The notes under the pieces are model-generated. The model was not told the origin of the DNA. It did no database searches and saw only the letters and a program-made list of their open reading frames with translations. Shown one piece after another: positions 5,969 through 57,576 of a stretch of 64,000 nt of DNA. Every line of letters starts with the position of its first letter. Position 1 is the first letter of the stretch. Origin of the DNA: Thermodesulfovibrionales bacterium (GTDB lineage Bacteria; Nitrospirota; Thermodesulfovibrionia; Thermodesulfovibrionales; UBA9159); assembly GCA_035622735.1 (NCBI GenBank), contig DASPUT010000077.1, positions 2,645 to 66,644 of the forward strand. The letters run 5' to 3'. Both the position numbers and the translations under genes were made by a program.

Positions 5969-6066
5969 ATGCCCCTCATGAAATCTCGCTTCTGATGACA
6001 ATTTGCCGCTGATCGGTTATTATATTGTGCGTTGAGAAGCCCAGACGCAGAGGAAATGTTGCGTTC

Positions 6067-25450: not shown

Positions 25451-28400
25451 GTGGTCTGGATGGGTAGAGAAAGGGACTCAGATACTTCGGCATTCCTTCC
25501 CCCCAAATATGGAGTCTTGAGGGAAGTGGTCCGGGACTACCCTAGCCTCCTGGCGGGTACCGACCAATTACTCATCCGGTTGAATGCCCATAGGAACGGT
25601 CAGGAAGCGGTGCTCGAGGAACTCCGGGCATATGCCCTGAAACATTTCTCTATCCATGACCATCATGAGAGAGGGCCGGAAGCGGTCGGGGTTATTATCT
25701 CCGTTTTCATTGAGGCCATGGACTCTCCTCACAGTCACGTGCGGGCCGCCGCAGCGGACAGTCTCCTCTTTTACCTGGAGAAAATTCTTGAAGGGGCCGG
25801 CCCGGATATCGAGAAGTATGCGCATGTCCTTTCCGAATGTTTTTCCCGGCTCTCCCTGCTGTCGGGAGATGGTCTCCTGCTTCTCGCGGCGAACCCCCAT
25901 CAGGTGAAGAAACTCGGTAGACAGATACTCGACAAGAAGTGCGGGAGTCTTGATATCGCCTGTTACGACGAATTACTTTCGCGGTGTCTCCTGACGACCT
26001 ACGACTACTGGCTGAAGGAGGAAGATCTTTTGACGCACTGCCGAGACAGAATCGATTTCGCGCTCACGGAAAAGGAATGCGGCGCACTCGAGGATCTGTT
26101 TTATCCCGTATCTCATGCGAACCTGAAGGAGCTCATCATCCATGTGAAAGATCTGAAGACGACCAACGTGAAGGACCCCCGGGCATACCTGGAAGAGCTC
26201 TTGAAATTGCCCGGATATATGCAGGTGGCCGGTTATTACGAGGACCTCATCGGCCTTCTCCCCAAAACAGGGGATCGGGAGCGATACCACGTCTTAAAGA
26301 TGATCCTGCTCTCGAGGTTTCTCGAAACGAGGGGGCTTGGGAGCATCCATGAAAATACGCTGAGGGAAATGAGCCGCACGCTCGTGGGGATCGTGAAGAC
26401 CGAGAATCACCGTGTGAGGGAATTTCTGACAGAGTCCATCGGCGTCCTGAAAAAATGTTTCGTGACATACCCGGAGGCGACCCTCTACTGCATCCAAGCG
26501 GTCGGCAATGAGGTATTCGCGCAGGGTGACAGCAACCTCGTCGAATGGTTCATCCAGAACGTGATCTCTGTCGGTTTCCAGTATCCGGATGTGGCCGGCC
26601 TCACCGATGAGTGGCAAGTGAGGTCGAACAAGAACCATCTCAAGAATATCCGCGTCTGGCTCGAATTGATCGAGAATAACCCGAAGTGGTCGAAGTCCCT
26701 CATCTCGGCCCTGATCATTAATCTCAGACTCGGTGGTGTCCATATCAATGACACGGACCTCTTTCAGAAGGACGTCACGAGAGTCCTAGAGAGCGATATC
26801 GAGCCAGTCTACTGGTTTATCAAGCAACTGGCGCAGGTATTCCCTGTCTATTTCAATGAGATCAATGCCGAAGGATCTTTGCGGGACGTCTCGACGGCGC
26901 TCGATGTCGCAGCAAAAAACGCGGACCCTCTCGTCCATTTCCTGCGTAAATATTGCCATGTCGAGAGCAGTTCCCTCATCGTCGACCTCATCGAGGAAAC
27001 GCTCACGTTCTTTCTGACAAAGGACAGGAGTCCCCTCGAACGGTTCTTGCCCGAGGATGTCTATCGTCAGGTCTCAGCCTCAGGCCCTTACATCGACGAT
27101 ATGAGCACGATCTTCGCCTCCCTTTTCAAGGAAAGGGGAATGCATCAGGTCGCCGAGCTCCTCGGCCTCGACGAGAGAGACATCCGCGCGCTCGTTCATG
27201 CGATACCGGGAGTCCCCCAGAGGGAGAAAGAGCGGGCGTGTCTCGCGATAAAGTTGTATCAGCTTCTCTACGAGAAGTACCGGCTGAGTCCGCAGAACAT
27301 CGTTGAAGAGTTGAGGCGCTTCAGTACGATGGGACTGCCCAACAGCGATGCCCTCATCGCGGTCTTGCGGGAAGGCGATACCTCCCAGCGTCTCGATGAG
27401 ATCCTGAAATACCTCCAGCTCCTGAAAGATATTATCCTTTCGCCGGAGCGGTATGAAGCCGTCGAAGACATATCCCGCAAAAGACATATCGCAGCCGGCA
27501 TCCCCTCGATGTACGGAAAGTACAGCGAGAAGAAATTCAATGCCCTCTCTCTCACGTTCCGTCTCGAAAATCTCGCGAACATCCTCTTCGAGGAGCTGAC
27601 AGAGACGTTTCATTACCGGTTCATCACCCGGGCCGCCCTCGTCAGGATCGACAAGTGCCTGCACCTCTTTTTCAGGGCCTTGCGGCTCGACGGAATATTC
27701 TCGAACAGGCTCGATAACATGTTGGAACTGCTCACCGGGGCATTGGAGGAGATGCGGTTTTCCTTCTCGCAGTATCTTGACATCTTCAGGGGATTTTCAG
27801 AGGGCGTGCAGGATATCCTGAACACGTACTACAGCGGTATTCACAAGACCAATCTGAAAAACCTGATCCTCCAATTGGGGCAGGAAAAGATACTGCCGAA
27901 ATACCTCGACACCCATAACGGCAGGAATGAGTTCGAGTTCGTCAATACCGTGACAGAGCGGTTTCTCAGGGATATCGTATCCGGTTCCTTCGGGCTCCAG
28001 CAGCTGGACAATTTCATCAGCAGGATACTCAGGACCCTCTTCGAGCAGGCTGAGGGCCTCGACATCAGGAGTCTGCACCTCCTCCTGAATTACGACCCGA
28101 AGAAGGCCCTGTCCGCCGTGCATGTCGCAAATAAGAACACCGATGATCGCATCCATCTCGGAAACAAGGGATACAACCTCGTCAAACTCGCCTCACTCGG
28201 CATACCAGTCCCTCCCGGTTTCATCATCACGACCGAGGCCTTTCGTTGCATGCCGGCGATCTCGCAATTCAGGCCAGTCCGGGATCACCTCCATGAAGGA
28301 ATCGGGGACCAGATGGGAGAGCTCGAAAAGCTGACAGGGAAGAAATTCGGAGACCCCGCCAATCCCCTTCTCGTATCAGTCAGAAGCGGTGCCGCGGTCT

Positions 28401-29632
28401 CGATGCCCGGCATGATGAATTCCTTCCTCAATGTGGGTCTCCACGAGGCTGCTGTCGAGGGGCTTATCGGGCAGACGGGCAGGCCATGGTTCGCATGGGA
28501 CTGTTATCGGCGCTTTCTGCAGTGCTGGGGGATGTTTTTTGGCATAGACAGGGACATCTTCGACGCCATTATCGATTCGTTCAAGCGGAGGTACGACGTC
28601 GGCGTCAAGATTCAGTTCACGCCGGAGCAGATGAGAGAGGTTGCCTTCGCGTACCGGGATGCCATGAAAGAGCACGGGGTCTCTGTGAGTGACGACCCGA
28701 AGACCCAGCTTGAGACGGCGATCTCCCTCGTCTTTCGCTCATGGAATTCAGAGAAGGCCCACACCTACCGCGAGATCCTCGGAATCTCCGAAGACTGGGG
28801 AACCGCGGTTATCGTTCAGGCGATGGTATACGGAAATCTCGATTCCACTTCAGGTACGGGCGTCCTCTTTACCCGCAATCCGTGGGGTTCCGGCGACAGG
28901 GCGATGCTCTGGGGCGACTTCACGACGGGGGCGCAGGGGGAGGACGTTGTGTCGGGACTCGTGAAGACCCTCTGCATATCCAATGAGCAGAGACTCATCG
29001 AAGAACGGACGTCGGACGTCTCGCTCGAAGACCGATTCCCGGAGATATACGGCGTTCTCCTCAAGATCGTCAAGGATCTCATCTATCGGGAGAAGTGGGG
29101 GGCGCAGGAGATAGAGTTCACCTTTGAAGGCGAGAAGGAGGAGAATCTCTACATCCTGCAGGCCCGCGACATGGCTGTGACGAAGAAAGACAGTCTCACC
29201 GCTTTCGTCCCTTCGGCAGAGCTGACAGCATGCTATCTATCGAGCGGGATCGGGGTAGGCGGGAGCGCCCTCAGTGGAAGAGTCGTCTTTGATTTCTATG
29301 AAATGGAGAAATTCAGACAGGAGGACCCTGCCGTGCCGCTCATCTTGATCAGGGCGGATACCGTTCCTGACGACATCGGGTATATCTCGGCAGCGGACGG
29401 ATTGCTCACCGCGCGCGGCGGCGCGACCTCTCACGCAGCCATCATCGCCAAGAAGCTTGGAAAGACCTGTATCGTCGGCTGCAGCAAGCTCGTCGTATGC
29501 GAAGAAGAAAAAAAATTCCGGTTGAACGACAGGGTGATCAGCGCAGGCGATTTTCTGAGCATCGACGGCAGGAACGGCTCGGTCTATCTCGGCAGTCACA
29601 GGGTGGAAGAGATACAGTTTCTGACGGCATAG
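25451..29632 (+). CDS. PPDK/PEP-synthase-like dikinase with ~900-aa uncharacterised N-terminal extension, lacking the PEP/pyruvate-binding barrel
   Basis: From about nt 28150 there are PPDK N-terminal ATP-grasp blocks: NKGYNLVKLASLGIPVPPGFIITTEAF, VRSGAAVSMPGMMNSFLNVGL, GTAVIVQAMVYGN and TGVLFTRNPWGSG...GAQGEDVVSGLV. A swivel phosphohistidine domain follows (LLTARGGATSHAAIIAKKLGKTCIVGC, His codon 29432-29434). The ORF stops ~65 aa later. The start (GTG 25451 or ATG 25460) is uncertain. Confidence 0.8.
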   Translation: MVWMGRERDSDTSAFLPPKYGVLREVVRDYPSLLAGTDQLLIRLNAHRNGQEAVLEELRAYALKHFSIHDHHERGPEAVGVIISVFIEAMDSPHSHVRAAAADSLLFYLEKILEGAGPDIEKYAHVLSECFSRLSLLSGDGLLLLAANPHQVKKLGRQILDKKCGSLDIACYDELLSRCLLTTYDYWLKEEDLLTHCRDRIDFALTEKECGALEDLFYPVSHANLKELIIHVKDLKTTNVKDPRAYLEELLKLPGYMQVAGYYEDLIGLLPKTGDRERYHVLKMILLSRFLETRGLGSIHENTLREMSRTLVGIVKTENHRVREFLTESIGVLKKCFVTYPEATLYCIQAVGNEVFAQGDSNLVEWFIQNVISVGFQYPDVAGLTDEWQVRSNKNHLKNIRVWLELIENNPKWSKSLISALIINLRLGGVHINDTDLFQKDVTRVLESDIEPVYWFIKQLAQVFPVYFNEINAEGSLRDVSTALDVAAKNADPLVHFLRKYCHVESSSLIVDLIEETLTFFLTKDRSPLERFLPEDVYRQVSASGPYIDDMSTIFASLFKERGMHQVAELLGLDERDIRALVHAIPGVPQREKERACLAIKLYQLLYEKYRLSPQNIVEELRRFSTMGLPNSDALIAVLREGDTSQRLDEILKYLQLLKDIILSPERYEAVEDISRKRHIAAGIPSMYGKYSEKKFNALSLTFRLENLANILFEELTETFHYRFITRAALVRIDKCLHLFFRALRLDGIFSNRLDNMLELLTGALEEMRFSFSQYLDIFRGFSEGVQDILNTYYSGIHKTNLKNLILQLGQEKILPKYLDTHNGRNEFEFVNTVTERFLRDIVSGSFGLQQLDNFISRILRTLFEQAEGLDIRSLHLLLNYDPKKALSAVHVANKNTDDRIHLGNKGYNLVKLASLGIPVPPGFIITTEAFRCMPAISQFRPVRDHLHEGIGDQMGELEKLTGKKFGDPANPLLVSVRSGAAVSMPGMMNSFLNVGLHEAAVEGLIGQTGRPWFAWDCYRRFLQCWGMFFGIDRDIFDAIIDSFKRRYDVGVKIQFTPEQMREVAFAYRDAMKEHGVSVSDDPKTQLETAISLVFRSWNSEKAHTYREILGISEDWGTAVIVQAMVYGNLDSTSGTGVLFTRNPWGSGDRAMLWGDFTTGAQGEDVVSGLVKTLCISNEQRLIEERTSDVSLEDRFPEIYGVLLKIVKDLIYREKWGAQEIEFTFEGEKEENLYILQARDMAVTKKDSLTAFVPSAELTACYLSSGIGVGGSALSGRVVFDFYEMEKFRQEDPAVPLILIRADTVPDDIGYISAADGLLTARGGATSHAAIIAKKLGKTCIVGCSKLVVCEEEKKFRLNDRVISAGDFLSIDGRNGSVYLGSHRVEEIQFLTA

Positions 29633-29667
29633 GAAACGACAAAATCATTAAAGGAGGGCTTACTGCG

Positions 29668-30933
29668 ATGACCGAAAGAGGTGCGAAGATGATCTCGGAA
29701 AAAAAACCGGTACTCGGCATAAACGGCTTGGGCAGAATCGGGAAGCTGTCCCTCTGGCATCATATAGGCAGAAAATTCTTTTCCGGCATCGTCGTGAACG
29801 TGGGCAGGAAGGCCGGGACCAGCCTCGAAGACATCGCCCTTTACATCGAAAAGGATTCCACCTACGGAGCCTTACACAACTATCTTTACGGGTACAGGTC
29901 GCAGAGACTCATAGGGGATCTGGACGAAGAGAAGGGGACGATGCGCATAGACGGCATCCCGGTTACCATTCTGAGGGAAAGCCGCAACCCCAAGGACATC
30001 GCCTGGAAATACCACGGGGCGAGAGTGGTCGTGGATGCCACCGGGAAATACGTAGACCCGGTCCCGCCGCCGGACGCGAAAGACGGCTCCGTGCGCGGTC
30101 ATATCGAGGCGGGAGCAGAGAAGGTCATCGTTTCGGCGCCCTTCAAGATTAAGGAAAAGGGGCGTCATCTGCCTGAAGATACGAAGACCCTCATCATGGG
30201 CATTAACGACGAAGTCTACGACCACACGAAACATCATGTCCTGTCCGCCGCGTCGTGCACCACGACGTGCCTTGCCTATATGGTCAAACCCCTCCTCGAC
30301 TACTTCGGCCCGAAGAAGATTCTAAGCCTGTCGATGGCGACGATCCATGCCGCCACGGGGTCGCAGGAGGTGCTCGACAAACTGCCGAAGGCCGGGGCAA
30401 CGGATTTGCGCAAGACGAGAAGCGTCCTGAACAACATAATCCTCACGAGGACCGGCGCCGCGAAGACCCTTGAGCAGGTGATCCCCGAAATGGGCACCAT
30501 CGGGTTCATCGCCGAATCGGTGAGGATACCGACTACCACAGGCTCTCTCATAATCCTCGTGATCGCCTTTCACGACGAAGAGGACAACCCGCTCATCAAC
30601 AGGGCCCTCATCAACGGCATCTATCGCGATGCGGCAGTAAAAGAAAAGAGGGGGTATCTGAAATACACCGATGAACAGAATGTCTCGACCGACATAATCG
30701 GATATTTCGGCCCCGCCGCGATCATTGAAGGGAACGAGACGCATACGCGAACCGCTGTCGTTACCCTCGATGTGGCCAGACTCTGCGGAGAAGTCCGCGA
30801 AGGCGCAGGGGCCACCCTGAATATCCCCATCACTCAAGCGATAACGCACGGCTGGTACGACAACGAACTCGGGAGCTACTGCAACATGCTCGGGGACTTG
30901 ACCGTGAAGGTCGCCTCCACGGTTTATCAGTAA
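29668..30933 (+). CDS. glyceraldehyde-3-phosphate dehydrogenase family protein, long form (~421 aa)
   Basis: AGGAGG at 29652-29657 lies before ATG 29668, so the 29497 extension overlapping the upstream gene is rejected. Family blocks present: GINGLGRIGK, SAASCTTTCLAYMVKPL (SCTTNC-type active site), RTGAAKTLEQVIPEM, VRIPTTTGS and WYDNELGSY. Confidence 0.85.
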   Translation: MTERGAKMISEKKPVLGINGLGRIGKLSLWHHIGRKFFSGIVVNVGRKAGTSLEDIALYIEKDSTYGALHNYLYGYRSQRLIGDLDEEKGTMRIDGIPVTILRESRNPKDIAWKYHGARVVVDATGKYVDPVPPPDAKDGSVRGHIEAGAEKVIVSAPFKIKEKGRHLPEDTKTLIMGINDEVYDHTKHHVLSAASCTTTCLAYMVKPLLDYFGPKKILSLSMATIHAATGSQEVLDKLPKAGATDLRKTRSVLNNIILTRTGAAKTLEQVIPEMGTIGFIAESVRIPTTTGSLIILVIAFHDEEDNPLINRALINGIYRDAAVKEKRGYLKYTDEQNVSTDIIGYFGPAAIIEGNETHTRTAVVTLDVARLCGEVREGAGATLNIPITQAITHGWYDNELGSYCNMLGDLTVKVASTVYQ

Positions 30934-39018: not shown

Positions 39019-39300
39019 TTATTTCGCCGCGCCGTGCAATTCCTCTTCAACCCTTTCAGACAGGAATATCTTTAAGAGCGATTGATAAGGAACATCCCGT
39101 TTATTAGCAAGTACCTTAAGATGCTCAATGAGCGATTCGGGCAGACGAATCGAGATCGTTTTGGTTGATGGTTTTAAGTGTGGAAATACTACTCGTTTTG
39201 CGGTCGAGTAGTCGACGTACTCCGTGGAATCGTGAGTAGCCCAAAACTCGGCTTCTTCTGCTTCACTCTTAAATTTGGGTATCTTCTTGAGTCTGTTCAT
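39019..39300 (-). CDS. brnA: BrnA-family antitoxin (RHH/CopG-like)
   Basis: KFKSEAEEAEFWATHDSTEYVDYS...ISIRLPESLIEHLKVLANKRDVPYQSLLKIFL. It overlaps the upstream BrnT gene by 32 nt. Confidence 0.8.
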   Translation of the reverse strand: MNRLKKIPKFKSEAEEAEFWATHDSTEYVDYSTAKRVVFPHLKPSTKTISIRLPESLIEHLKVLANKRDVPYQSLLKIFLSERVEEELHGAAK

Positions 39301-39592
39301 ATACTCTTCTCTCCTTCCGATTCATGTCACGTGCCGAAATTATCCTTATCCTGGCACGCCTCAAAGCGAAAACGACAAAAAGCAATCTCTCCGTGTCTGT
39401 CTTCCCCAGCGCGAAGCATCGATCCTCAGTTGTTGAGTGCGGCATATCTTTTCTAACAATTATCGGATCGTTAAAGAATATCTCTTCGCATTCGATATGG
39501 GAGACTCTATGTCTCTCCCAATTCTTCTTTATATTTCCCTCGTCCCATTCGAAACCTTCAACCGAAGCCCAAATGTCAGTCCAATCTTTCAT
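39269..39592 (-). CDS. brnT: BrnT-family toxin (DUF497 ribonuclease toxin)
   Basis: FEWDEGNIKKNWERHRVSHIECEEIFFNDP...RLLFVVFALRRARIRIISARDMNRKERRVYE. Confidence 0.85.
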   Translation of the reverse strand: MKDWTDIWASVEGFEWDEGNIKKNWERHRVSHIECEEIFFNDPIIVRKDMPHSTTEDRCFALGKTDTERLLFVVFALRRARIRIISARDMNRKERRVYEQTQEDTQI

Positions 39593-41877: not shown

Positions 41878-42282
41878 TTACGATCCCATTTCGTCAAGGT
41901 GTTTACAGAACTTCAGGTAGGCGGAATCCTTTGCTGCTATCTTTACACCTATTAGACCATTCTTAATAGTCCTAATGACTTTCCCTTTCAGGTTTGATGT
42001 CTGCTTACCAGCTAGTTCGATATTAATGTCGAGTATTGTGTCAGGGTCAAATTGATGTTCTGTTTTTATGGACAAGCCGTTCATCGAAATATCTTGGCTT
42101 ATACCCTCATACGTTATGCCGTTTGCCGTGAACCGTATACCACAACTCACCTCATACCTTCTATAAAGTCTGTCGTCCTTTCTTCTCTCTGCCGAGCGAA
42201 GCAGGAAAAGTACAACGCTTGCACAAATTAAGGCGGTTGCCACACCTAAAGAAATCAGACTTGTCAGTGTTGCTTTAAACAT
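41878..42282 (-). CDS. membrane-anchored PilZ domain protein
   Basis: N-terminal helix LISLGVATALICASVVLFLL. PilZ motifs RLYRR (RxxxR) and DISMNG (DxSxxG). Confidence 0.8.
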   Translation of the reverse strand: MFKATLTSLISLGVATALICASVVLFLLRSAERRKDDRLYRRYEVSCGIRFTANGITYEGISQDISMNGLSIKTEHQFDPDTILDINIELAGKQTSNLKGKVIRTIKNGLIGVKIAAKDSAYLKFCKHLDEMGS

Positions 42283-42364
42283 ATTCCTTCCTTGGTCGCT
42301 TGTATTTTATTGTCATATTCTATGAAACAGTTTCTCGTTCACATTTTTAGAAACGCAAATCAAT

Positions 42365-42703
42365 TTAAGCGCCCATTTGTTTTTCGTATGATTTTGCGAT
42401 GCTCTCAATGAATCCCCTGATTCTTGCCCTCTGATCGTTATGCAGGTCAATAAACACAAGGCCTGCGCCAATGCCAGGCTGACAATTCTTTACCTGCCCT
42501 TTGACTGTTATCTTCTCTTCTCCTATCGGAAGGGTAATCTCGACAACGTCATCCTCGTCAAAATAGCGCGCCCCCGAAACATAAATACCGGCTTCACTTA
42601 TATCATAACTTGTACAGCAATGTATGCCGTCTAGCAAAATTTCCTCTCGAAAAGGAAATCTCCGGCAGTTTCTGCGTTCTGTTTTTTCTTCGTCGTCCTT
42701 CAT
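42365..42703 (-). CDS. PilZ domain protein
   Basis: RRNCRR (RxxxR) and DISEAG (DxSxxG). 112 aa, single domain. Confidence 0.8.
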   Translation of the reverse strand: MKDDEEKTERRNCRRFPFREEILLDGIHCCTSYDISEAGIYVSGARYFDEDDVVEITLPIGEEKITVKGQVKNCQPGIGAGLVFIDLHNDQRARIRGFIESIAKSYEKQMGA

Positions 42704-42710
42704 AAATTTC

Positions 42711-43094
42711 TCACTGATTATGAAAATGTCTGAGAGAAGAGGTTAACTGCTCATAGAGCAACGGTTGTTTCGTTGAATCTATTTCCTCCTTGAATTGAAT
42801 CCCCACATAATAAATATCCCTAATCTTTCTGCTATATGTGCTGATGCCGTCCACAGAAGCACTCTTCATCGATCCGTCGACCGCTATGAAATAAACATCG
42901 ATTGATAGATCTTTGCCCTCCCTCAGTGGCTGGTCAGAATAAACACCGATTCCCGCCAAAGACATGTCGGCAACCATTGCCTGAATTGAATAGGCGTCGC
43001 GCCCGCCAGCAATATTGAGTGTCGCGGTTGCCGGCAATGCAATTCTTTTATGACTGCGTATCCTATACATATGATGATTGCCGTTTATTCTCAA
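42711..43094 (-). CDS. PilZ domain protein
   Basis: RSHKR (RxxxR) and DMSLAG (DxSxxG). There is a 7-nt gap to the downstream PilZ gene. Confidence 0.75.
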   Translation of the reverse strand: MRINGNHHMYRIRSHKRIALPATATLNIAGGRDAYSIQAMVADMSLAGIGVYSDQPLREGKDLSIDVYFIAVDGSMKSASVDGISTYSRKIRDIYYVGIQFKEEIDSTKQPLLYEQLTSSLRHFHNQ

Positions 43095-43124
43095 TATGCT
43101 TTCCGGAACGCATGTTCGACAATT

Positions 43125-43553
43125 CTATCCCGTCCTCTTACTCATGTCCTTCACCTCGACTGGAGTGAAATCATCATTCATGCCTATTGAAGACGACAAA
43201 CTCTGCTCAAGTGAAGCGCGGTTAAGCAGATACCTGATAAAATGAACATAATTAGAATCCCTCTCAATGAGCTCGACTCCCATCCCAATTTTTTCTTTCT
43301 TCCCTGTCCTAAGCGCGGTCCCGGCGGGGCTTGCACAGGCTCTTTTGACCTTAACGCTAACCTTTGAAATCGCGCCATACGGTAGATAAAGTGCCATGTC
43401 GAGAATAGTATCCGGCGCCTGCGGATGGTCAGTTCTGATGAACATTCCGTGTAGCGAAAAATTGCTCGAAGTCCCAGTATAAATCATCCCGTTTGACACG
43501 AACTCAGTGTCACAGTACTTAATAAAGCGCTTATGCCTTCTTCTGTTAACCAC
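43125..43553 (-). CDS. PilZ domain protein (possibly the 3' part of an amber-interrupted gene)
   Basis: RRRHKR and NFSLHG motifs. The only available start is a GTG at 43553 with no Shine-Dalgarno sequence. The same frame continues upstream through one TAG (43569-43571) into a 54-codon ORF. Confidence 0.7.
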   Translation of the reverse strand: MVNRRRHKRFIKYCDTEFVSNGMIYTGTSSNFSLHGMFIRTDHPQAPDTILDMALYLPYGAISKVSVKVKRACASPAGTALRTGKKEKIGMGVELIERDSNYVHFIRYLLNRASLEQSLSSSIGMNDDFTPVEVKDMSKRTG

Positions 43554-43568
43554 GGTTCGTAAACACGC

Positions 43569-43733
43569 CTAGTGTTGTCTCGTCATTGGGTTTATCCCTC
43601 TATCTCTCTGCGAATATGCCTCACTTGCATTCTTCTCGTTTGAGGAGCGAAGCAGGAAAAGAACAAAGGCCCCACAAGACAAAATAGATAGCACACCCAG
43701 GCAAAGCACATTTATTATTGTCGGTTCAAACAT
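43569..43733 (-). CDS. 54-codon membrane-anchor ORF, probably the severed N-terminus of the PilZ gene downstream
   Basis: AAGGAGGA lies before ATG 43733. It encodes MFEPTIINVLCLGVLSILSCGAFVLFLLRSS..., similar to the N-terminus of the 41878-42282 PilZ protein (MFKATLTSLISLGVATALICASVVLFLLRSA). It is in frame with 43125-43553. Confidence 0.4.
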   Translation of the reverse strand: MFEPTIINVLCLGVLSILSCGAFVLFLLRSSNEKNASEAYSQRDRGINPMTRQH

Positions 43734-44263
43734 ATTGTTCCTCCTTCTTAGAGGTATAGTAGCAAGAGTTATTCCACGATTAATTATTTCCGCAATGCCC
43801 GAAAAAAAACCTAAATAACAAGATGTTACTATTAATTGTTATCGAGAGGATGACTCCTCTTTGACCGAAAATCATACGGGGTGACAAAAAAACGTACAGA
43901 TTCCAATTAACTGAATTCAGAAAGACGTTTCTGAAGGATAAGAGGTTAAAATGAAGACCATGAGTAGAACTTATGAGCCTCTTTGAGCCCATCCGCTGGC
44001 CCCGGGTGACAGACACCAAGGGGGCCGGGTGATTGAGAGTTCGTCTCGCAACCAGTTGCCAAGACTTCTTCTGCTACAAGTTCCACTTTTCAGAGTCTCG
44101 GCTTTTCATATTTCTGTTTCTTCTGTTCAGGGTGTTCTCTCTTTATCCTTGTTCACCTTAACCGAAAGATTAAGAAAACGCATGGCTGCGATAGCTTCAG
44201 TGATCGAATAATCGAGAACCAGACGTCGTGGGGCCCAATTTACAAGCAGATATGTATATAAAA

Positions 44264-44311: not shown

Positions 44312-44392
44312 CCCGATAAAGCTAAACCCTCCGTGAGAAGGGGACGGAAAGCGTGCGGGTCTTAGAGAAGATGGCCGAGCTGCCGAAGGATT
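44312..44392 (+). promoter_or_regulatory. candidate c-di-GMP-I (GEMM-I class) riboswitch aptamer
   Basis: By-eye alignment to the Vc2/RF01051 core. Elements found: AAAGCUAAACC (44318-44328); a hairpin capped by the GNRA loop GUGA (44329-44340); GGGACGGAAAGCG (44341-44353, compare GGGACGCAAAGCC); a second helix CGG-GUCUU/AGAG/AAGAU-GG-CCG (44356-44377); and 3' AGCUGCCGAAGG (44378-44389). Confidence 0.6.
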
Positions 44393-44474
44393 CTTTACAG
44401 ACTGGTAGATGAGGTCACTTTAATAAGGGGCAAGCAAGACTAAGGCGTCCCCTTCCTATAAAGAGGAGGGCAAT

Positions 44475-46784
44475 ATGCGATATGTTTGCGGACTCCCGGT
44501 TATTGTTATATTCGGTTTTTTATTAGTTCTCCCTTTTCCCCAAAATGCTCAAGCCTCGCTCCAAAACGGTGTTCCTTTCGATACATATCTGGATTCAATG
44601 ACTTATGCCAACATCGACATCTACGTACCTGCAGGTGCCACAAAACTCACTGTCACTATCAGTAATGGAAGCGGCAATCTGGATCTCTATTTGAAATACG
44701 GCAGTCCCGCTCAAGGCAACACTGTGGGGCAATTGAATGCTAACGCCGATGTCGTGTCGGCAGGTCCGACAGCGGATGAAACGATTGTGCTGACGCCTGA
44801 GACCACCCCTCCGCTGCACGAGGGGGTATGGTATGTTGCGACCTTGAACCTTAACAACACGAGAACTTATTTTGCATTAACCGCCACTGTGGAAGTTCCG
44901 ATGGGCCAAGCGATTCCAATTCCAACAGAACAGGAAATGTGGGGTTACTCGCCTGTCGAAAAATGCATCGCAAATTATGATGCTGCAAGTTCCAAGCCGA
45001 TATGCATTCAAACCTCCGTCCCGGGTGGTAAGACAATTACGGTCAAAGTTGAGGCCCAGCGATTTGCGGCACCGGTTGATATTTACTTCGGAATCTGTGC
45101 CAATCCGATCGACTCACGAAATATCTACCTCCTGTCATCAGATAACCATCTGCGACCGCTTGCCGAGGGTTATGTCCCTTGGCGCACAAACGTGGCGGGG
45201 CCTTTGAATGAAAATGTTTTGGGGGACATTCCCCTTTCGAGCCTTCCGCCAGGGAGGTATGACCTATATCTGGGGATAGCACTTTTGGGTCGAACAGACG
45301 TTTATTATATCTGGGCCACTTCTTATGTTATAAAGCCCGGGCCTGAGTATGTTGCAGATGGTGATGCCGCTTTTTTCGACGGCACGGTAGTCGTCCCAAA
45401 ATCGAAAATTCAATTTCAGGGTCAGCTTTACGATGAAACGGCTGAAGTACCCGCTAATACTTTAGTTGGTGTCATCAAGTCGGACAAGATCTACCTTTAT
45501 CATACGGCACTTGGTACCGTCACTCTTTCCGATGAGACGACGCGTAAGGCCATCGGACAATTTGTGATGGATTACTTTGAGAACACCTCATCGACAGCCA
45601 CTGCGGGACTCAACACCATTGCGAGTGGCGACCAACTCCTGACCTACGCAAATCCCGCGGATCTCAAGACCGGCGTCAAACTCACGCGACTCGCCGAAAA
45701 AGAGGTTGAAGTTTTGAACGAGTTCCACAGGTGGGCTGCGATAGAGGGGACAGAGGGGAGCGGACCATATTTCCTACCGCCACCGGCTCGTTATCTCGAT
45801 AACAACCTAATTCGTCTCTTTGGCAATTATCTGAAGTTATCGGAGTCCTGGTTCAATGCGAGCAACGAAAACAAGGAAACCGTGTATTTCACTTCAGATT
45901 CTCTGACGATTGAGACGTTCGGGGCAACATGGAGACCACTGCCCTATTTCCTTGCGGGTGCTACCGACATTGCCAATATGGTTGTTTCGTTGCTCTCTGG
46001 GCGATCGAATCCCGTAACGAACATCCCCATTGATGGCGAGGCCATGGCTATCCAGAAAGACCAAAAGCTTGTCGAAGCCCTTTGGAATATTGATCTTGCC
46101 GCCATGCTGTTCGAAGGGATAAAACTCTTCGCCGCCACATTCGATGTGAGCGAGACGCTTGAACCTGTAGTGAATCTGTGTTGCAACACGGCTATGGCGA
46201 TTACTCATGCCTGGATCAATGGTCAGGCGGGAACGCCGCAAGCCAAAGCCAGCGTTAAGAAGGCCATTGAAGATCTGGCCAACGACATTCCGACGGCATT
46301 GATTAATGTTGGTACCGCGGGAGGAGGCACGCCCTTCTTTACCTTGGTAGACGGCATTGCAACCCTGGATTACATGGTTGAGGATGTTGTTATCCACGAC
46401 CTTGAGGTTACTGGGGGGTCAGCCTACGATGAGGTCTCTATGAAACCGGAAACTTCAAACAACGTTGACCTATTCTCTTTCCCTTGGAGGGTATTTTGGG
46501 GCTGTGACGAGACATCCACCTCGTGCGATCCCGTGCCGAATTATCTCAAGTTTTATACAAATTATGTGTATGATCTCTTTGCCTCTCCCGATATGGCAAA
46601 GCCGGACTGGCACGGCAGTTGGTCTCGGGCTGGCTCAACCCTTACGCTCACGCCAACAGACGGCAAAGATTGCGTTTCATCCTATGTCGGAACACTGATA
46701 TATCCCCATACAATCAAGGGATACTACACCCTCGGACCGAAATGCGCAAACCCGGGAGAGAAACATTACTGGATGGCACAGTAA
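44475..46784 (+). CDS. secreted 769-aa protein with N-terminal PPC (pre-peptidase C-terminal type) domain; remainder unknown
   Basis: AGAGGAGGG lies before the ATG. Signal peptide ...LVLPFPQNAQA. PPC-like block YANIDIYVPAGATKLTVTISNGSGNLDLYLKYGSPA...WYVATLN. No family was recognised for the following ~620 aa. Confidence 0.8.
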   Translation: MRYVCGLPVIVIFGFLLVLPFPQNAQASLQNGVPFDTYLDSMTYANIDIYVPAGATKLTVTISNGSGNLDLYLKYGSPAQGNTVGQLNANADVVSAGPTADETIVLTPETTPPLHEGVWYVATLNLNNTRTYFALTATVEVPMGQAIPIPTEQEMWGYSPVEKCIANYDAASSKPICIQTSVPGGKTITVKVEAQRFAAPVDIYFGICANPIDSRNIYLLSSDNHLRPLAEGYVPWRTNVAGPLNENVLGDIPLSSLPPGRYDLYLGIALLGRTDVYYIWATSYVIKPGPEYVADGDAAFFDGTVVVPKSKIQFQGQLYDETAEVPANTLVGVIKSDKIYLYHTALGTVTLSDETTRKAIGQFVMDYFENTSSTATAGLNTIASGDQLLTYANPADLKTGVKLTRLAEKEVEVLNEFHRWAAIEGTEGSGPYFLPPPARYLDNNLIRLFGNYLKLSESWFNASNENKETVYFTSDSLTIETFGATWRPLPYFLAGATDIANMVVSLLSGRSNPVTNIPIDGEAMAIQKDQKLVEALWNIDLAAMLFEGIKLFAATFDVSETLEPVVNLCCNTAMAITHAWINGQAGTPQAKASVKKAIEDLANDIPTALINVGTAGGGTPFFTLVDGIATLDYMVEDVVIHDLEVTGGSAYDEVSMKPETSNNVDLFSFPWRVFWGCDETSTSCDPVPNYLKFYTNYVYDLFASPDMAKPDWHGSWSRAGSTLTLTPTDGKDCVSSYVGTLIYPHTIKGYYTLGPKCANPGEKHYWMAQ

Positions 46785-48906: not shown

Positions 48907-49200
48907 ATGAGTACTCTGTCTGATACCACAAGGCTGATTATGGATGTTTTCTTGCAATACGGGATAGAGAAGCATCATCATCTGTCCCTGTTCAATCTGT
49001 TTTATGCGAAGACTCAATGGGAGAAGTGTCATCAGGATAATTTCACCAAGGCGGTCCATGAGCTTGTGAATAGGGGATTCATGGAATGGGGTGAAGCGTA
49101 TGCATTGGTTCTCACGGAAGAAGGATACCATGCCTTGTCTCACCCAAATGAGGTTGAAAAAAATCGTGAAGGGGCATTGGAGGGTTATGAACTACGGTGA
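48907..49200 (+). CDS. hypothetical small cytoplasmic protein
   Basis: GAAGGAGA lies before the ATG. 97 aa, helical, with no recognised family. It is the first gene of a three-gene same-strand group with the PilZ paralogue. Confidence 0.5.
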   Translation: MSTLSDTTRLIMDVFLQYGIEKHHHLSLFNLFYAKTQWEKCHQDNFTKAVHELVNRGFMEWGEAYALVLTEEGYHALSHPNEVEKNREGALEGYELR

Positions 49201-49375
49201 TTTTGTTTGGTATGCTGCAGCCGCTGCGGTGATCCTCTGCATTCTCGGACCACTGATACTCCTCAGACATGCCGAGAAGAGTGCGGGGAAGCCGGGGTCC
49301 GCTACCAGAGAGCGTTAGATGGGAAAGATTCTGTCGTGCTCAAGGTCCGGACAAGAGAACGTGCGGGTGGGAGCT

Positions 49376-49837
49376 ATGGTTAATAGGAGAAGACATAAGC
49401 GCTTTATTAAACACTGCGATGTCGAATTTTTCTCAGGAGGGATGGGACATGCCGGAACTTCGAGTAATTTTTCATTGCAGGGAATGTTCATAAGAACAGA
49501 TCATCCTCAGGCGCCGGGCACGGTTCTCGACATTTTGCTCTATCTTCCCTATGGCGAGATTTCAAAATTGCGGGGTAAGGTGAAGAGGGCATGGACAAAC
49601 CCCGCTGGGGCGGGGGTGAGAAGACCCAAGAATGGGAAAATCGGGATGGGGGTTGAGGTCATAGAGAAAGATGCCAGTTATCTTCACTTCATCAGGTATT
49701 TGCTTAACTGGTCTCACCTCTCCGGAATATTCGTCGCGCGACAAGAGAAACGTGGAGAAATCTACGCGACAGCTGATCGGACATACCGCGAATGCGGCCT
49801 TGAGGAAACCGTTGAAAAAGTTCCGGATGACTCATAG
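49376..49837 (+). CDS. PilZ domain protein, paralogue of 43125-43553
   Basis: GGGTGGGAG lies before ATG 49376. MVNRRRHKRFIKHCDVEFF...SSNFSLQGMFIRTDHPQAPGTVLD...IGMGVEVIEKDASYLHFIRYLLN is near-collinear with the 43125 protein. Confidence 0.8.
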   Translation: MVNRRRHKRFIKHCDVEFFSGGMGHAGTSSNFSLQGMFIRTDHPQAPGTVLDILLYLPYGEISKLRGKVKRAWTNPAGAGVRRPKNGKIGMGVEVIEKDASYLHFIRYLLNWSHLSGIFVARQEKRGEIYATADRTYRECGLEETVEKVPDDS

Positions 49838-49849
49838 GATGAGCGGAAG

Positions 49850-50266
49850 ATGGAACCGGTAAAAGTGGTCATCAGATATGCCCATGGTGGGCTGATAAAA
49901 GGCTTCACGAATGATTTTTTTCCCAACAAGCCTTTCTTTCACGTTCGCCCGATTGAGTCTGGATCTATCGATAAAGGTGTCGAGATTCACATGAAGGAAC
50001 TTAAGGCAGTATTTTTCGTAAAGGATTTTAAGGGTAACCGCGAATACCATGAAAGGAAACACTTTGCCGACGGCCAGCAGGCTAACGGGCGGCGGGTTGA
50101 AGTGACATTTTTGGATGGTGAGGTGATGGTGGGATCAACATTGGGTTATGATCCCAGTCGTCCTGGATTCTTCGTTACTCCCGCCGATACGGATGTCAAT
50201 AATATACGGGTGTTTGTGGTCTCGACAGCCGTGAGCAAGTTTCGGTTTGTTCAAACCACTTGTTGA
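49850..50266 (+). CDS. hypothetical beta-rich protein co-oriented with PilZ paralogue
   Basis: It starts 12 nt after the PilZ stop. Conserved-looking blocks are LKAVFFVKDFKGN, VEVTFLDGEVMVGSTLGYDPSRPGFFVTPAD and NNIRVFVVSTAV. I cannot name the family. Confidence 0.6.
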   Translation: MEPVKVVIRYAHGGLIKGFTNDFFPNKPFFHVRPIESGSIDKGVEIHMKELKAVFFVKDFKGNREYHERKHFADGQQANGRRVEVTFLDGEVMVGSTLGYDPSRPGFFVTPADTDVNNIRVFVVSTAVSKFRFVQTTC

Positions 50267-52550: not shown

Positions 52551-53792
52551 ATGAACGGGGGCAAAATAAAGAGTTTTCTGGCGACACTCCTGGCAGCTCT
52601 TTCTCTATCAATTGTTATAGGCACGGCGAGGGATTTGTCAGCGGCATATGTATTAACAGACCAGGAGCTTGATGACCTCCTCGCTCCTATCGCTCTCTAC
52701 CCGGACCCGTTGCTAGCCCAGATGTTGCCAGCCTCGACATACCCGTCGGACGTTGTTGATGCGGCAGGTTGGCTGAGAAGCGGTGGCGACCCATCATTTG
52801 TTGATGAGCAAAATTGGGATGAGAACGTCGGGGCCATTGCCCACTACCCACAGGTTCTCTATATGATGGCTGATAATATCGATTGGACTGCTAGCGTTGG
52901 TGATGCTTTTCTGAACCAGCCGGAAGATGTGACCAATTCGATTCAGCGTCTGAGGTGGCAAGCGCAGACCCTCGGGAATCTTGTGAGTAACGATCAACAG
53001 GCTGTTACTACGGAGGGAGGCGATATTCAGATCATTCCAGCCCAACCTCAATATATTTATGTGCCTCAGTATGATCCATCAATCGTGTACGTTCAAGCAC
53101 GGATCCCCGTCCTGCCTCCTTACGTTACATTTCCCCTGGTGTTTACGATCGGAAGCTGGCTGGACCTTGACTTTGACTGGGGTCACCACCACGTCTTCTA
53201 CCATGGGTGGAATCGCCCTGGGTGGGTCAATCATGCAAGGCCCTATGTGCACATAACGAATGTTTACGTTCAAAGGAGCAGACCTTACATCAATCAGACA
53301 TGGAGGCACAATCCATCGCACGGCGATCCAGACAGGTATTGGACGTCGAGACCGGGTGGAGCTCCAAGCGGCAGCTATCCGCACGGCTCTGAAGTCAGGG
53401 GAAGGAGTTCGACACCCACGGGACCTGCGGCTGGCCCGTTCGTCCCCAACGCCAATACCAGGCAATTTAGCGATAGGGGAAAAGAAAGCCTCGGCACTGC
53501 CGTTCCACGTCCGACACCTCAAGCTCCTGCTGCCGTTCCACGTCCAGCACCTCAAGCTCCTGCTGCCGTTCCACGTCCGGCGCCGCAAGCTCCCGCTGCC
53601 GTACCACATCCGGCGCCGCAAGCTCCTGCTGTCTTCGGAGGCTACAGGGGACTCAATGAAGTCAAAACGCAGAGTATGCGTGGCCAAGCGAGCCGCCAGA
53701 GCAATGTGGGAGGATCCACCGCGCCAGCTTCGGTGAACAAGGTCGGCGCTCCTTCGAGCCGCGGCGAACCCGGTAGCGGCGGACACCGGTAA
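52551..53792 (+). CDS. DUF3300 family secreted protein with proline-rich repeat tail
   Basis: GAAGGAG lies before the ATG, followed by a signal peptide. LTDQELDDLLAPIALYPDPLLAQMLPASTYPSDVVDAAGWL is the DUF3300 hallmark. Confidence 0.8.
   Translation: MNGGKIKSFLATLLAALSLSIVIGTARDLSAAYVLTDQELDDLLAPIALYPDPLLAQMLPASTYPSDVVDAAGWLRSGGDPSFVDEQNWDENVGAIAHYPQVLYMMADNIDWTASVGDAFLNQPEDVTNSIQRLRWQAQTLGNLVSNDQQAVTTEGGDIQIIPAQPQYIYVPQYDPSIVYVQARIPVLPPYVTFPLVFTIGSWLDLDFDWGHHHVFYHGWNRPGWVNHARPYVHITNVYVQRSRPYINQTWRHNPSHGDPDRYWTSRPGGAPSGSYPHGSEVRGRSSTPTGPAAGPFVPNANTRQFSDRGKESLGTAVPRPTPQAPAAVPRPAPQAPAAVPRPAPQAPAAVPHPAPQAPAVFGGYRGLNEVKTQSMRGQASRQSNVGGSTAPASVNKVGAPSSRGEPGSGGHR
53499..53630. repeat. four tandem 33-bp coding repeats (AVPRPAPQAPA units)
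   Basis: GCCGTTCCACGTCC(G/A)(A/G)C(A/G)CC(T/G)CAAGCTCC(T/C)GCT repeats head-to-tail at 53499, 53532, 53565 and 53598. Confidence 0.85.
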
Positions 53793-53862
53793 CAGGATCG
53801 GATTAGTTAAACAACTTCTGACTGCTAAGGGCACGATTGAGTACGAAGAAAGGAAGGACGTC

Positions 53863-54831
53863 ATGAAGACAGTTTCAGCAGACTCCACATCTCATTCATC
53901 GCAGAAGATTGCTTTAGTAACATCCATTTTGGCTTTAGCGATGGCGGTCTTATGGAATGTGACGGGGACCGGTGCAGCGTCCCAACGATATTTTGCCACA
54001 CCAGAAGACGCTGTCAAAGCACTCGCAGAGGCCGTGAAGTCAAACGACACGGCCGCGCTGGATCAGATTTTCGGGCCTGCCAGAAAAGAGGTTCTCTCTA
54101 ATGACGAGGTGCAGCACGCTGCTGCCCTTGAGGCATTTACGAAACACCTGCAAGAAAAAACTAATCTTGTGAAAGAGAATGATTCGACGGTGATGCTTCA
54201 CGTCGGTAATGAAGACTGGCCCTTTCCCATTCCGATTGTGAAAAGGGATAACCAGTGGTTCTTTGATACTGAGGCAGGCAAGGAAGAGATCCTAAACCGT
54301 CGTATCGGAGAAAACGAACTTACCGCCATGCTCGTTTGTCGCACGTACGTGAAGGCTCAGCGAGAGTATGCCCTGAAGGATTGGGAGGGCACCGGTGTAC
54401 TGGCATATGCACAGAAGCTGCGAAGTGACCCTGGTAGGAAGAACGGTCTTTTTTGGAGAACGAAGGAGGGAGAAGAGGTGAGTCCCTTCGGGGAACTCGT
54501 CGCTCAGGCGTGGAAGGAAGGATATAAGAAGAAAAAGGCCGCTTTCAGGGAAGAGGCAACACCATTTCACGGATATTATTTTAGAATCTTGACTGAACAA
54601 GGTAAAAATGCCCCGGGGGGAAAATACAATTACGTTATCAATGGCAACATGGTTGCAGGTTTTGCCCTGATCGCATTTCCCTCGGACTGGAAGAAATCGG
54701 GTGTTATGACATTCGTTGTCAATCAGCAAGGGAAAGTCTATCAGAAGAACCTTGGACCAGAGACCACCAAGATTGCTCAACAGATGAAATCATATAATCC
54801 TGATGGAAACTGGACCCTTGTTAAGGAATAA
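53863..54831 (+). CDS. DUF2950 family secreted protein
   Basis: GAAAGGAAGGA lies before the ATG. WPFPIPIVKRDNQWFFDTEAGKEEILNRRIGENEL...GYYFRILTEQGKNAPGG...GFALIAFPSDWKKSGVMTFVVNQQGKVYQKNLG matches the DUF2950 pattern. This family is the usual partner of DUF3300. Confidence 0.8.
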   Translation: MKTVSADSTSHSSQKIALVTSILALAMAVLWNVTGTGAASQRYFATPEDAVKALAEAVKSNDTAALDQIFGPARKEVLSNDEVQHAAALEAFTKHLQEKTNLVKENDSTVMLHVGNEDWPFPIPIVKRDNQWFFDTEAGKEEILNRRIGENELTAMLVCRTYVKAQREYALKDWEGTGVLAYAQKLRSDPGRKNGLFWRTKEGEEVSPFGELVAQAWKEGYKKKKAAFREEATPFHGYYFRILTEQGKNAPGGKYNYVINGNMVAGFALIAFPSDWKKSGVMTFVVNQQGKVYQKNLGPETTKIAQQMKSYNPDGNWTLVKE

Positions 54832-56577: not shown

Positions 56578-57576
56578 TTACGCTTTATGTTTTATCCTTT
56601 TATGTTCGTGCATCATCTCATCCGCGTGCGAAATCAATTCGTCAACGGAACACGGCTTTTCCGGGTTGTAAAGAGATACGCCGAGACTCAATGACAGGTT
56701 GTAGTTCTTATTTCTCGAAGCATTCTGATTTTTCATGTTCTTCTCCAGGCGGGCGATAATCTTCTCTATGTTATCTCCGGTAATTCCTACCGGAATTACG
56801 ACAAACTCATCACCACCTATCCGGGCAACGATGTCTGACTCCCGATAGGTTGTTTTGAGGACCTTAGCGGTCTCGACTAGTGCCTCATCGCCCTCGTGAT
56901 GGCCTGACCTATCATTAATCGATTTCAGATGATCCAAATCGGCATAGAGCATGTATATCCCTTTCTTTTGCCGTTTGGCGAGCTTGAGAAACTCCTCGGC
57001 GAGCGTGAAGAACCCCCGCCGGTTGTACAGGCCGGTGAGTTCATCAGTGATTGTCAGGAGACGGAGTCTCTCTTGTAATTTGACGTGGTTCACCCTATGC
57101 AGTATTTCCTTCATGGTAAAGGGCTTCTTTATGAAGTCCGATGCCCCGGCATCTATGGCTCTGTCGTACGAGAAATCGTCAATGAAACCTGTCATGATAA
57201 TGGTCGCCATGTCGGGTCTGAACTTTCTCGCTTTTTCCGTGAGTTCAAAACCATTCATGCCGGGCATTGCGACGTCTGCCAGCATAATGTGGAAATGGCC
57301 TTTCGTTAAACATTCAATGGCGGCCTCGGAACTCGTGCACGTTTCGCATCGGTAACCATGAGATTCGAACATCTCTCGGAGTATCGGCAACATTGCTTCA
57401 TCGTTATCAACAATGATTATTGCGGTTCTCTCGTCCAACTTACCCTCCGTCTTCGGGTTCATCATCCGGGTCCGGGAGGCATGCGCCAAAGCTGCTTTTC
57501 GCGACAATGCATCCGCAAATAGGATAATACTACTCTCGATTAAAATCAAGAACGAAATTGGGTTCGAACATTTCAA
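56578..57576 (-). CDS. response regulator-diguanylate cyclase (REC-GGDEF)
   Basis: REC domain: IIIVDNDEAMLPILREMF...MLADVAMPGMNGFEL. GGDEF domain: DELTGLYNRRGF...RIGGDEFVVI, with an RESD I-site five residues upstream. The true start may be the internal MMNPK (about 57465). Confidence 0.88.
   Translation of the reverse strand: MKCSNPISFLILIESSIILFADALSRKAALAHASRTRMMNPKTEGKLDERTAIIIVDNDEAMLPILREMFESHGYRCETCTSSEAAIECLTKGHFHIMLADVAMPGMNGFELTEKARKFRPDMATIIMTGFIDDFSYDRAIDAGASDFIKKPFTMKEILHRVNHVKLQERLRLLTITDELTGLYNRRGFFTLAEEFLKLAKRQKKGIYMLYADLDHLKSINDRSGHHEGDEALVETAKVLKTTYRESDIVARIGGDEFVVIPVGITGDNIEKIIARLEKNMKNQNASRNKNYNLSLSLGVSLYNPEKPCSVDELISHADEMMHEHKRIKHKA

Follow-up and report, generated by a model that had tools for sequence, protein, structure and literature searches.

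Proteins with a PilZ domain are the most common receptors of the messenger cyclic di-GMP (c-di-GMP), and what most stand-alone PilZ proteins act on is not known. To our knowledge, nothing has been established about c-di-GMP signalling in the uncultured Thermodesulfovibrionales (Nitrospirota) of peat. A metagenome-assembled genome of such a bacterium carries four consecutive genes that each encode a single PilZ domain, which raises the question of what so many predicted receptors of the same kind are doing side by side. We analysed a stretch of 64,000 nucleotides of contig DASPUT010000077.1 from this genome (hereafter the window), in which the four genes form an array on the minus strand. We find it fairly likely that the array is a lineage-specific mosaic operon of c-di-GMP-binding PilZ adaptors, one anchored in the membrane and three soluble, which would pass a common signal to different partners. 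The window is chromosomal and carries the cell-division cluster murB, ddl, ftsQ, ftsA, and ftsZ at 58.7-64 kb, and the array locus is covered, whole or in part, by seven independent assemblies (ENA, JGI, Logan) with at least 99.9% identity.

Sequence and predicted fold of the array proteins

The first-pass annotation of the window, made from the sequence and its open reading frames (ORFs) without database searches, had placed four adjacent stand-alone PilZ genes on the minus strand, and the ORFs are indeed found there (PilZ1 to PilZ4, Table 1). The Pfam profile search that it had proposed was run, and all four proteins, as well as the product of a fifth gene, PilZ5, scored above the curated gathering score of PF07238 (22.5 bits). 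The motif strings that it had listed are correct: the RxxxR half of the binding signature reads RLYRR in PilZ1, RRNCRR in PilZ2, RSHKR in PilZ3, and RRRHKR in PilZ4, and the [D/N]xSxxG half reads DISMNG, DISEAG, DMSLAG, and NFSLHG, respectively. As in canonical PilZ domains, the second motif lies about 20-25 residues downstream of the first in all four proteins. When these were aligned with their nearest homologs (11 sequences), the motifs fell into shared columns, in which both arginines of RxxxR and the glycine of xSxxG are invariant and the serine is nearly so. Pairwise identity among the four proteins is 26-38%, in agreement with the earlier view that they are strongly diverged and do not stem from a recent tandem duplication. 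The 19-residue hydropathy (KD19) supports a membrane helix only at the N-terminus of PilZ1 (residues 10-28, KD19 = 2.56) and in a mini-ORF that precedes the array. The PilZ1 gene is preceded by the Shine-Dalgarno sequence AAGGAAGGA.

Table 1. Position and main characteristics of the array and of the neighbouring elements discussed in the text. Positions are those of the window; scores are Pfam bits unless stated otherwise.
Feature	Position	Strand	Length	Characteristics
Upstream box	43857-43880	-	24 nt	CCCGTATGATTTTCGGTCAAAGAG; conserved; candidate activator-binding site
Palindrome	43816-43828	-		TAACA-N3-TGTTA; between the upstream box and the -24/-12 element
-24/-12 element	43761-43776	-		TGGAATAACTCTTGCT; sigma-54-like, GG-N10-GC; invariant across homologous upstream regions
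Helix mini-ORF	43569-43733	-	54 codons	Heads the array; AAGGAGG Shine-Dalgarno sequence and ATG; KD19 = 2.63
PilZ4	43125-43553	-	142 aa	GTG start; soluble single PilZ domain; 29.9 bits
PilZ3	42711-43094	-	127 aa from TTG, or 119-120 aa from ATG 43073	Soluble; 35.1 bits
PilZ2	42365-42703	-	112 aa	Soluble single PilZ domain; 35.9 bits
PilZ1	41878-42282	-	134 aa	Membrane-anchored single PilZ domain, last in the array; 45.2 bits
Riboswitch aptamer	44312-44388	+		c-di-GMP-I type; Rfam RF03167, 62.2 bits (gathering score 59); divergent from the array
Secreted PPC-domain protein	44475-46784	+	769 aa	Signal peptide; gene downstream of the riboswitch
Second helix mini-ORF	49187-49318	+	43 codons	MNYGDFVWY...; in-frame TAG 57 nt before PilZ5
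PilZ5	49376-49837	+		Stand-alone PilZ, PilZ4 paralog; 32.0 bits
DUF6982 gene	49850-50266	+		Begins 12 nt after PilZ5; 101 bits
REC-GGDEF diguanylate cyclase	56578-57576	-		GGDEF 131 bits, Response_reg 93 bits

AlphaFold2 models cover PilZ3 and PilZ4, the two weaker Pfam scorers of the array. The model of PilZ4 has a beta-barrel followed by a long C-terminal helix, with a core predicted local distance difference test (pLDDT) score of about 90, and that of PilZ3 has six strands and a C-terminal helix with a mean pLDDT of 75. A comparison of the PilZ4 model with the PDB by Foldseek gave MapZ as the best match, and MotI, a Pseudomonas aeruginosa PilZ domain (4xrn), and Alg44 were also among the top matches. 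The best matches of the PilZ3 model, at target-normalised TM-scores of 0.70-0.77, were the c-di-GMP-bound PilZ domain of Alg44 and the P. aeruginosa domain 4xrn. The best PDB matches of both models are c-di-GMP-bound PilZ structures, YcgR included, and by these models PilZ3 and PilZ4 are predicted to have the canonical PilZ fold. A search of PDB sequences with a profile of PilZ1, PilZ4, and PilZ5 gave no match. The proteins stay below the TIGR02266 cut-off of 68.7 bits (26.6 bits for PilZ1, 25.7 for PilZ2, 30.3 for PilZ4, and no match for PilZ3), and their architecture is not YcgR-like, as they have 112-142 residues with one Pfam stretch each and no PilZN or PilZ-like domain before PilZ. Judged from their sequences, the four array proteins show every testable defining feature of a canonical PilZ domain, and they are predicted to bind c-di-GMP.

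The ratio of nonsynonymous to synonymous substitution rates (dN/dS) relative to the nearest homologs is 0.25-0.38 for PilZ1 (0.32 against its closest homolog), 0.15-0.28 for PilZ2, and 0.15 for PilZ3, and it is 0.12 between PilZ4 and PilZ5. These values point to purifying selection that kept the PilZ domains functional over most of their history.

Distribution of the array and of its members

Relatives of the array proteins are few. A word-indexed search of 5.8 billion proteins returned a small number of them, and a HMMER search of 1.84 billion representatives of clusters at 50% identity gave 14 clusters at E <= 1e-10 for PilZ1. The nearest homologs of three array members are mostly solo genes: that of PilZ1 is 72% identical (locus L008), that of PilZ3 is 59% identical (L096), and those of PilZ2 (56-62% identity) are found in three different contexts, one of them beside a PAS-GGDEF-EAL gene. 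A PilZ2 homolog in L013 (1872-2189) has EISEGG in place of [D/N]xSxxG and is a natural variant of the binding motif.

PilZ1, PilZ4, and PilZ5 form one subfamily (35-41% identity). In locus L101, a transmembrane (TM) PilZ1-type gene is followed by a PilZ4-type gene, and the pair divergently adjoins REC-GGDEF and HD-GYP genes; in L108, the order is HD-GYP, PilZ4-type, TM-PilZ1-type. Since the two types are adjacent in both loci, the outer members of the array, PilZ4 and PilZ1, appear to be a recurring pair linked to genes of c-di-GMP turnover, and PilZ3 and PilZ2 look like additions. In L010, the promoter region shared with the array is followed by a helix mini-ORF, a gene for a PilZ-PilZ protein of 255 residues, and a PilZ1-type gene without helix. 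The first-pass annotation had proposed to look for the four-gene array in related genomes and held that its absence there would speak for a random accumulation. Only the above sub-patterns recur, the four genes together were found in no other organism, and the array as such appears to be lineage-specific.

We built a PilZ hidden Markov model iteratively from the domains of the window, an ad hoc model that may miss divergent PilZ domains, and searched 80 related Nitrospirota loci with it. This gave 8 PilZ ORFs in 1.31 Mb, none of them adjacent to another and several encoding PilZ-PilZ fusions. For comparison, the window has five PilZ genes inside 8 kb. Given the unpaired ORFs elsewhere, four consecutive PilZ genes are, by this count, no random draw.

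The PilZ-PilZ fusions of related Nitrospirota constitute a conserved family of 240-280 residues (L010 202-969, L038 12920-13633, L048 5955-6785, L064 11269-12027), which in L010 lies directly upstream of the PilZ1-type gene. On inspection, the RxxxR motif in the C-terminal domain of the L010 protein appears degenerate. The idea that PilZ3 and PilZ2 are the halves of a split L010 fusion was rejected, as the likeness is weak and unspecific (27% identity and E = 1e-5 for PilZ2, E = 0.18 for PilZ3).

The 80 loci were anchored on the Dus gene that neighbours the array, which is 64-86% identical between the window (28000-58000) and 80 Nitrospirota genomes (L016-L095), and were taken with flanks of 10 kb. 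No array homolog occurs within 10 kb of Dus in any of them. They share essentially no neighbour gene with the window either, and hence this synteny test is uninformative on the orthologous site. The gene order around Dus is unusually fluid.

Operon layout and promoter region

The helix mini-ORF, PilZ4, PilZ3, PilZ2, and PilZ1 follow each other on one strand with gaps of 15, 30, 7, and 82 nt. This spacing suggests that the five ORFs are transcribed together. About 150 nt upstream of the helix mini-ORF are conserved with the regions upstream of TM-PilZ genes in L008, L101, and L010, in the latter up to the contig end. The conserved region starts with a box that is unique in the window (0 expected) and that, among 106 loci, is found only upstream of TM-PilZ genes. 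It is followed by a palindrome, a putative protein-binding site, that is kept in the window and L008, and in L101 and L010 with one mismatch each. Further downstream, TGGAAT-N5-TTGCT is invariant and has the same spacing in the window, L008, L101, and L010, and resembles a sigma-54 promoter. The GG-N10-GC pattern on its own is weak (4 matches against 1.6 expected), and the evidence for such a promoter is therefore the invariance in four diverged sequences. In the window, the TTGC of the element lies 28 nt before the ATG of the mini-ORF, with the strong AAGGAGG ribosome-binding site downstream of the element. Transcription of the array may thus depend on sigma-54. We also considered the 150 nt as a structured leader RNA and rejected this, since RNAalifold gave -5.4 kcal/mol with one covarying pair and Rfam had no match even at E <= 1.

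Membrane helices detached from PilZ domains

The helix mini-ORF is in the reading frame of PilZ4 and ends in a TAG codon 15 nt before the GTG start of PilZ4. This TAG is present in four out of the four assemblies that reach the site, which are at least 99.9% identical to the window, and is therefore no assembly error. Recoding of TAG (pyrrolysine) was ruled out, because TAG is the stop codon in 13 of 50 genes, among them ftsZ and PilZ4.

The first-pass annotation had described the outer copies as carrying, or having once carried, an N-terminal membrane helix and the inner ones as soluble. This holds for the helix of PilZ1 and for the soluble PilZ2 and PilZ3. The helix before PilZ4, in turn, is probably the remnant of a separate TM-PilZ gene and not the lost N-terminus of PilZ4. 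Its homologs are the N-terminal helices encoded by TM-PilZ1-type genes (L008, L101, L108) and a mini-ORF of 37 codons in L010. Comparison with L101 shows two collinear blocks, one in which the window (43881-43650) matches the promoter and helix, and one in which it (43544-43339) matches the PilZ4-type gene. Between them the window is short by about 310 bp, which corresponds to the length of one PilZ domain. Moreover, PilZ4-type proteins elsewhere start soluble (MKKL.HERRRQKRF), as seen in L101 and L108, and so does PilZ5. Both the gap and the soluble starts argue that the helix comes from a different gene.

Two similar cases were found. A second helix mini-ORF precedes PilZ5 in the window, and in the PilZ5 homologs P0014 (L107) and P0038 (L109) the same helix is directly fused to the PilZ domain; the window (48919-49278) is 73% identical in nucleotides to L107. 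An ORF of 97 residues (48907-49200) overlaps this second helix mini-ORF, and the pairing is also found in L107. The third case is the mini-ORF of L010 (92-205), whose TGA overlaps the GTG of the next gene.

Over 30-35 codons, the dN/dS of the helix mini-ORFs is 0.2-1.2, a scatter too wide to decide between a working peptide and a remnant. Instead of being debris, the mini-proteins could have a function, either as detached anchors or as peptides by which soluble PilZ proteins are docked or regulated. If the TAG is read through at a low level, one receptor could also exist in an anchored and a soluble form. It is quite unlikely, in our opinion, that in this Thermodesulfovibrionales lineage promoter and membrane helix form a fixed module behind which PilZ domains are exchanged as cassettes, with the helix persisting as a separately translated mini-protein.

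Other genes of the window

The first-pass annotation missed PilZ5 with its split helix (49187-49837) and the gene for a REC-GGDEF protein (56578-57576). PilZ5 has an ATG preceded by the Shine-Dalgarno sequence GGGTGGGAG, and its product is 70% identical to PilZ4 over 115 residues, beginning exactly at the start codon and ending with a YLLN motif. We found no mention of the domain of the following gene, DUF6982, in the literature searched. The REC-GGDEF protein shows the GGDEF and RxxD motifs in the alignment, is 51% identical to its counterpart in L101, and is a likely local source of c-di-GMP, which would link it to the array. An HD-GYP gene, as in L101 and L108, was not found in the window.

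The riboswitch divergent from the array is best matched by the 'GGC' variant model of Rfam, yet it has an A instead of a G at model position 37. We take this position to be the variant-defining A47 in the numbering of Vc2, where A would be the canonical c-di-GMP-I residue, and the riboswitch probably senses c-di-GMP like a canonical class I aptamer. In the minimum-free-energy fold of 44312-44490, CCCUCC of the aptamer pairs with the GGAGGG ribosome-binding site of the gene for the 769-residue protein, and this pairing suggests a translational ON switch. A small secreted protein encoded beside the L008 homolog was considered as a counterpart of the window's p120 and rejected, as only the signal peptides align.

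Several other genes of the window deserve mention. A BrnT toxin and CopG-type antitoxin pair lies at 39019-39592 (minus strand), 2.3 kb from the array. The plus-strand gene at 6025-8550 encodes 841 residues in which a family-2 glycosyltransferase is fused to a PAPS-reductase-like domain, and sits within a cluster of glycosyltransferase and GDP-mannose genes (5-24 kb). A protein of 1393 residues (25451-30933, plus strand) has its PEP-utilising domains (PPDK_N and mobile) confined to the C-terminal third, and the end of its gene is overlapped by 136 nt by a GAPDH-like ORF of 478 residues with a long N-terminal extension. Finally, DUF3300 and DUF2950 genes adjoin each other at 52551-54831 (plus strand); the Pfam matches are strong and the function of neither is known.

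Comparison with known PilZ systems

The array proteins resemble MapZ (PA4608) and other stand-alone PilZ adaptors in size (about 110-140 residues) and in their single PilZ beta-barrel with a C-terminal helix. They differ from MapZ-type adaptors in that their sequences are 16-22% identical to any solved PilZ domain, no chemotaxis methyltransferase or other known partner is encoded nearby, and one member of the array has an N-terminal membrane helix. With the PilZ domains of Alg44 and BcsA they would share an action at the membrane, and the PilZ3 model matches the Alg44 domain best. However, these proteins join PilZ to large synthase or periplasmic modules, whereas the array proteins have no other domain. 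The scan of the window's genes bore out the first-pass statement that no cellulose or alginate synthase and no flagellar or pilus client is adjacent. In particular, there is no adjacent Alg8- or BcsA-type synthase, and the glycosyltransferase cluster is more than 18 kb away and lacks a PilZ domain.

Tandem pilZ duplication and large sets of PilZ paralogs are both established themes (bioRxiv 10.1101/814665; PMC8316039; PMC11800159). The former has been described together with PilZ-PilZ fusion proteins such as Bll4394 and SMc00999 (Galperin and Chou, bioRxiv 10.1101/814665). As in those systems, the adjacent PilZ units of the array keep their C-terminal helices and motifs. Unlike in a tandem duplication, they are separate, strongly diverged genes, and each has closer relatives elsewhere, which suggests that the array was assembled rather than duplicated in place. 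Large sets of diverged paralogs are known from Myxococcus xanthus (PlpA, PixA, PixB, CdbS; TIGR02266) and from Leptospira (YcgR-GAZ), and such expansions have been read as neofunctionalisation towards different partners (PMC8316039, PMC11800159). The array is similar in that diverged paralogs, each with its binding residues, occur in one genome. It differs in that its proteins are below the TIGR02266 cut-off and lack PilZN or GAZ domains, and in that the paralogs are clustered in one probable operon.

What the array may do

The arrangement that we consider fairly likely starts with the conserved promoter region and the helix mini-protein of 54 residues, followed by the soluble PilZ4, PilZ3, and PilZ2 and by the membrane-anchored PilZ1. 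Each PilZ beta-barrel would clamp c-di-GMP between the N-terminal RxxxR arm and the [D/N]xSxxG strand, and the loaded protein, like the stand-alone adaptor MapZ, would then interact differently with a partner. The four proteins most likely read one c-di-GMP pool, fed by cyclases of the REC-GGDEF type, and would act on different partners, PilZ1 doing so at the inner face of the membrane. The cluster would have been assembled by recombination and not by recent duplication. Its core would be the pair of PilZ4-type and TM-PilZ1-type genes, to which PilZ3 and PilZ2, whose relatives are solo, were added, and the leading mini-ORF would descend from a TM-PilZ gene whose PilZ domain was lost.

Several observations weigh against this view. 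The four-gene set is absent from the contexts of the nearest homologs, from the 80 Dus-anchored loci, and from a metagenome scan, and there is no comparative support, in any other organism sampled, for the four genes acting together. PilZ4 lacks an obvious Shine-Dalgarno sequence before its GTG, and one gene caller cut it to 106 residues without the motifs; its expression may be low, or the gene may have been disabled recently. The TGGAAT of the promoter element departs from the sigma-54 consensus TGGCAC, and neither rpoN nor an activator is among the genes scanned in the 64 kb of genome in the window. The REC-GGDEF gene is 13 kb distant from the array.

Some of these observations would be expected if the locus were a dump of redundant or decaying paralogs, gathered by recombination in a variable region, without joint function and in part already inactive. 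The array is headed by a truncated TM-PilZ gene, PilZ4 starts with GTG and has no Shine-Dalgarno sequence, PilZ5 is likewise severed from its helix by a TAG, and the array is confined to one organism among those sampled, in a region without synteny and with a GC content of 0.42-0.46 (window, 0.50). On the other hand, all four domains retain both binding motifs and have dN/dS values of 0.12-0.38, the lowest of which involves PilZ4 itself (against PilZ5). The genes also look organised, as they follow each other closely on one strand after a conserved promoter, and a similar layout is found in L010. We regard decay as rather unlikely. The probable co-transcription, the single anchored member accompanied by a separate helix mini-protein, and the recurrent adjacency of PilZ4-type and TM-PilZ1-type genes would also fit a function of the proteins as one unit, either a membrane-tethered hetero-oligomer that senses c-di-GMP or a graded buffer, with receptors of different affinity responding at successive thresholds. 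In Salmonella and Pseudomonas, PilZ paralogs of different affinity do give different response thresholds. Considering that the homologs of PilZ3 and PilZ2 are solo genes in unrelated contexts and that canonical stand-alone PilZ domains such as MapZ are monomeric adaptors, a joint unit seems distinctly improbable.

The first-pass annotation had looked for the targets among the neighbours and named the riboswitch-controlled secreted protein and the secreted proteins further along as the nearest candidates. The array would then control the export or function of the 769-residue protein, or of the secreted proteins at 47-48.8 kb. The divergent arrangement of the array and of a c-di-GMP-I-type riboswitch before a gene for a PPC-domain protein with a signal peptide does juxtapose an RNA sensor and protein sensors of the same messenger. 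Yet the proposal rests on adjacency in one genome. No riboswitch was found at any of ten homolog loci, and the 769-residue protein has only partial matches (about 18% of the query) in two Dus-anchored loci, where there is no PilZ gene. The scan of the window's genes found no secretion machinery gene nearby. The neighbours that do recur with this PilZ subfamily are HD-GYP (L101, L108) and REC-GGDEF (L101) genes, and it is with these, not with the secreted protein, that gene neighbourhoods link the subfamily. Control of the secreted proteins by the array is highly improbable in our view.

The array proteins are ordinary members of a known family, and they represent no new kind of receptor or mechanism. 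The twists are modest: a mosaic and lineage-specific assembly, a promoter module that is conserved and sigma-54-like, and membrane helices that repeatedly became detached. Inside 15 kb, the locus combines a riboswitch and a response-regulator cyclase with four or five diverged receptors, and it is a compact site for studying the distribution of one messenger over several outputs and the assembly of receptor repertoires by recombination.

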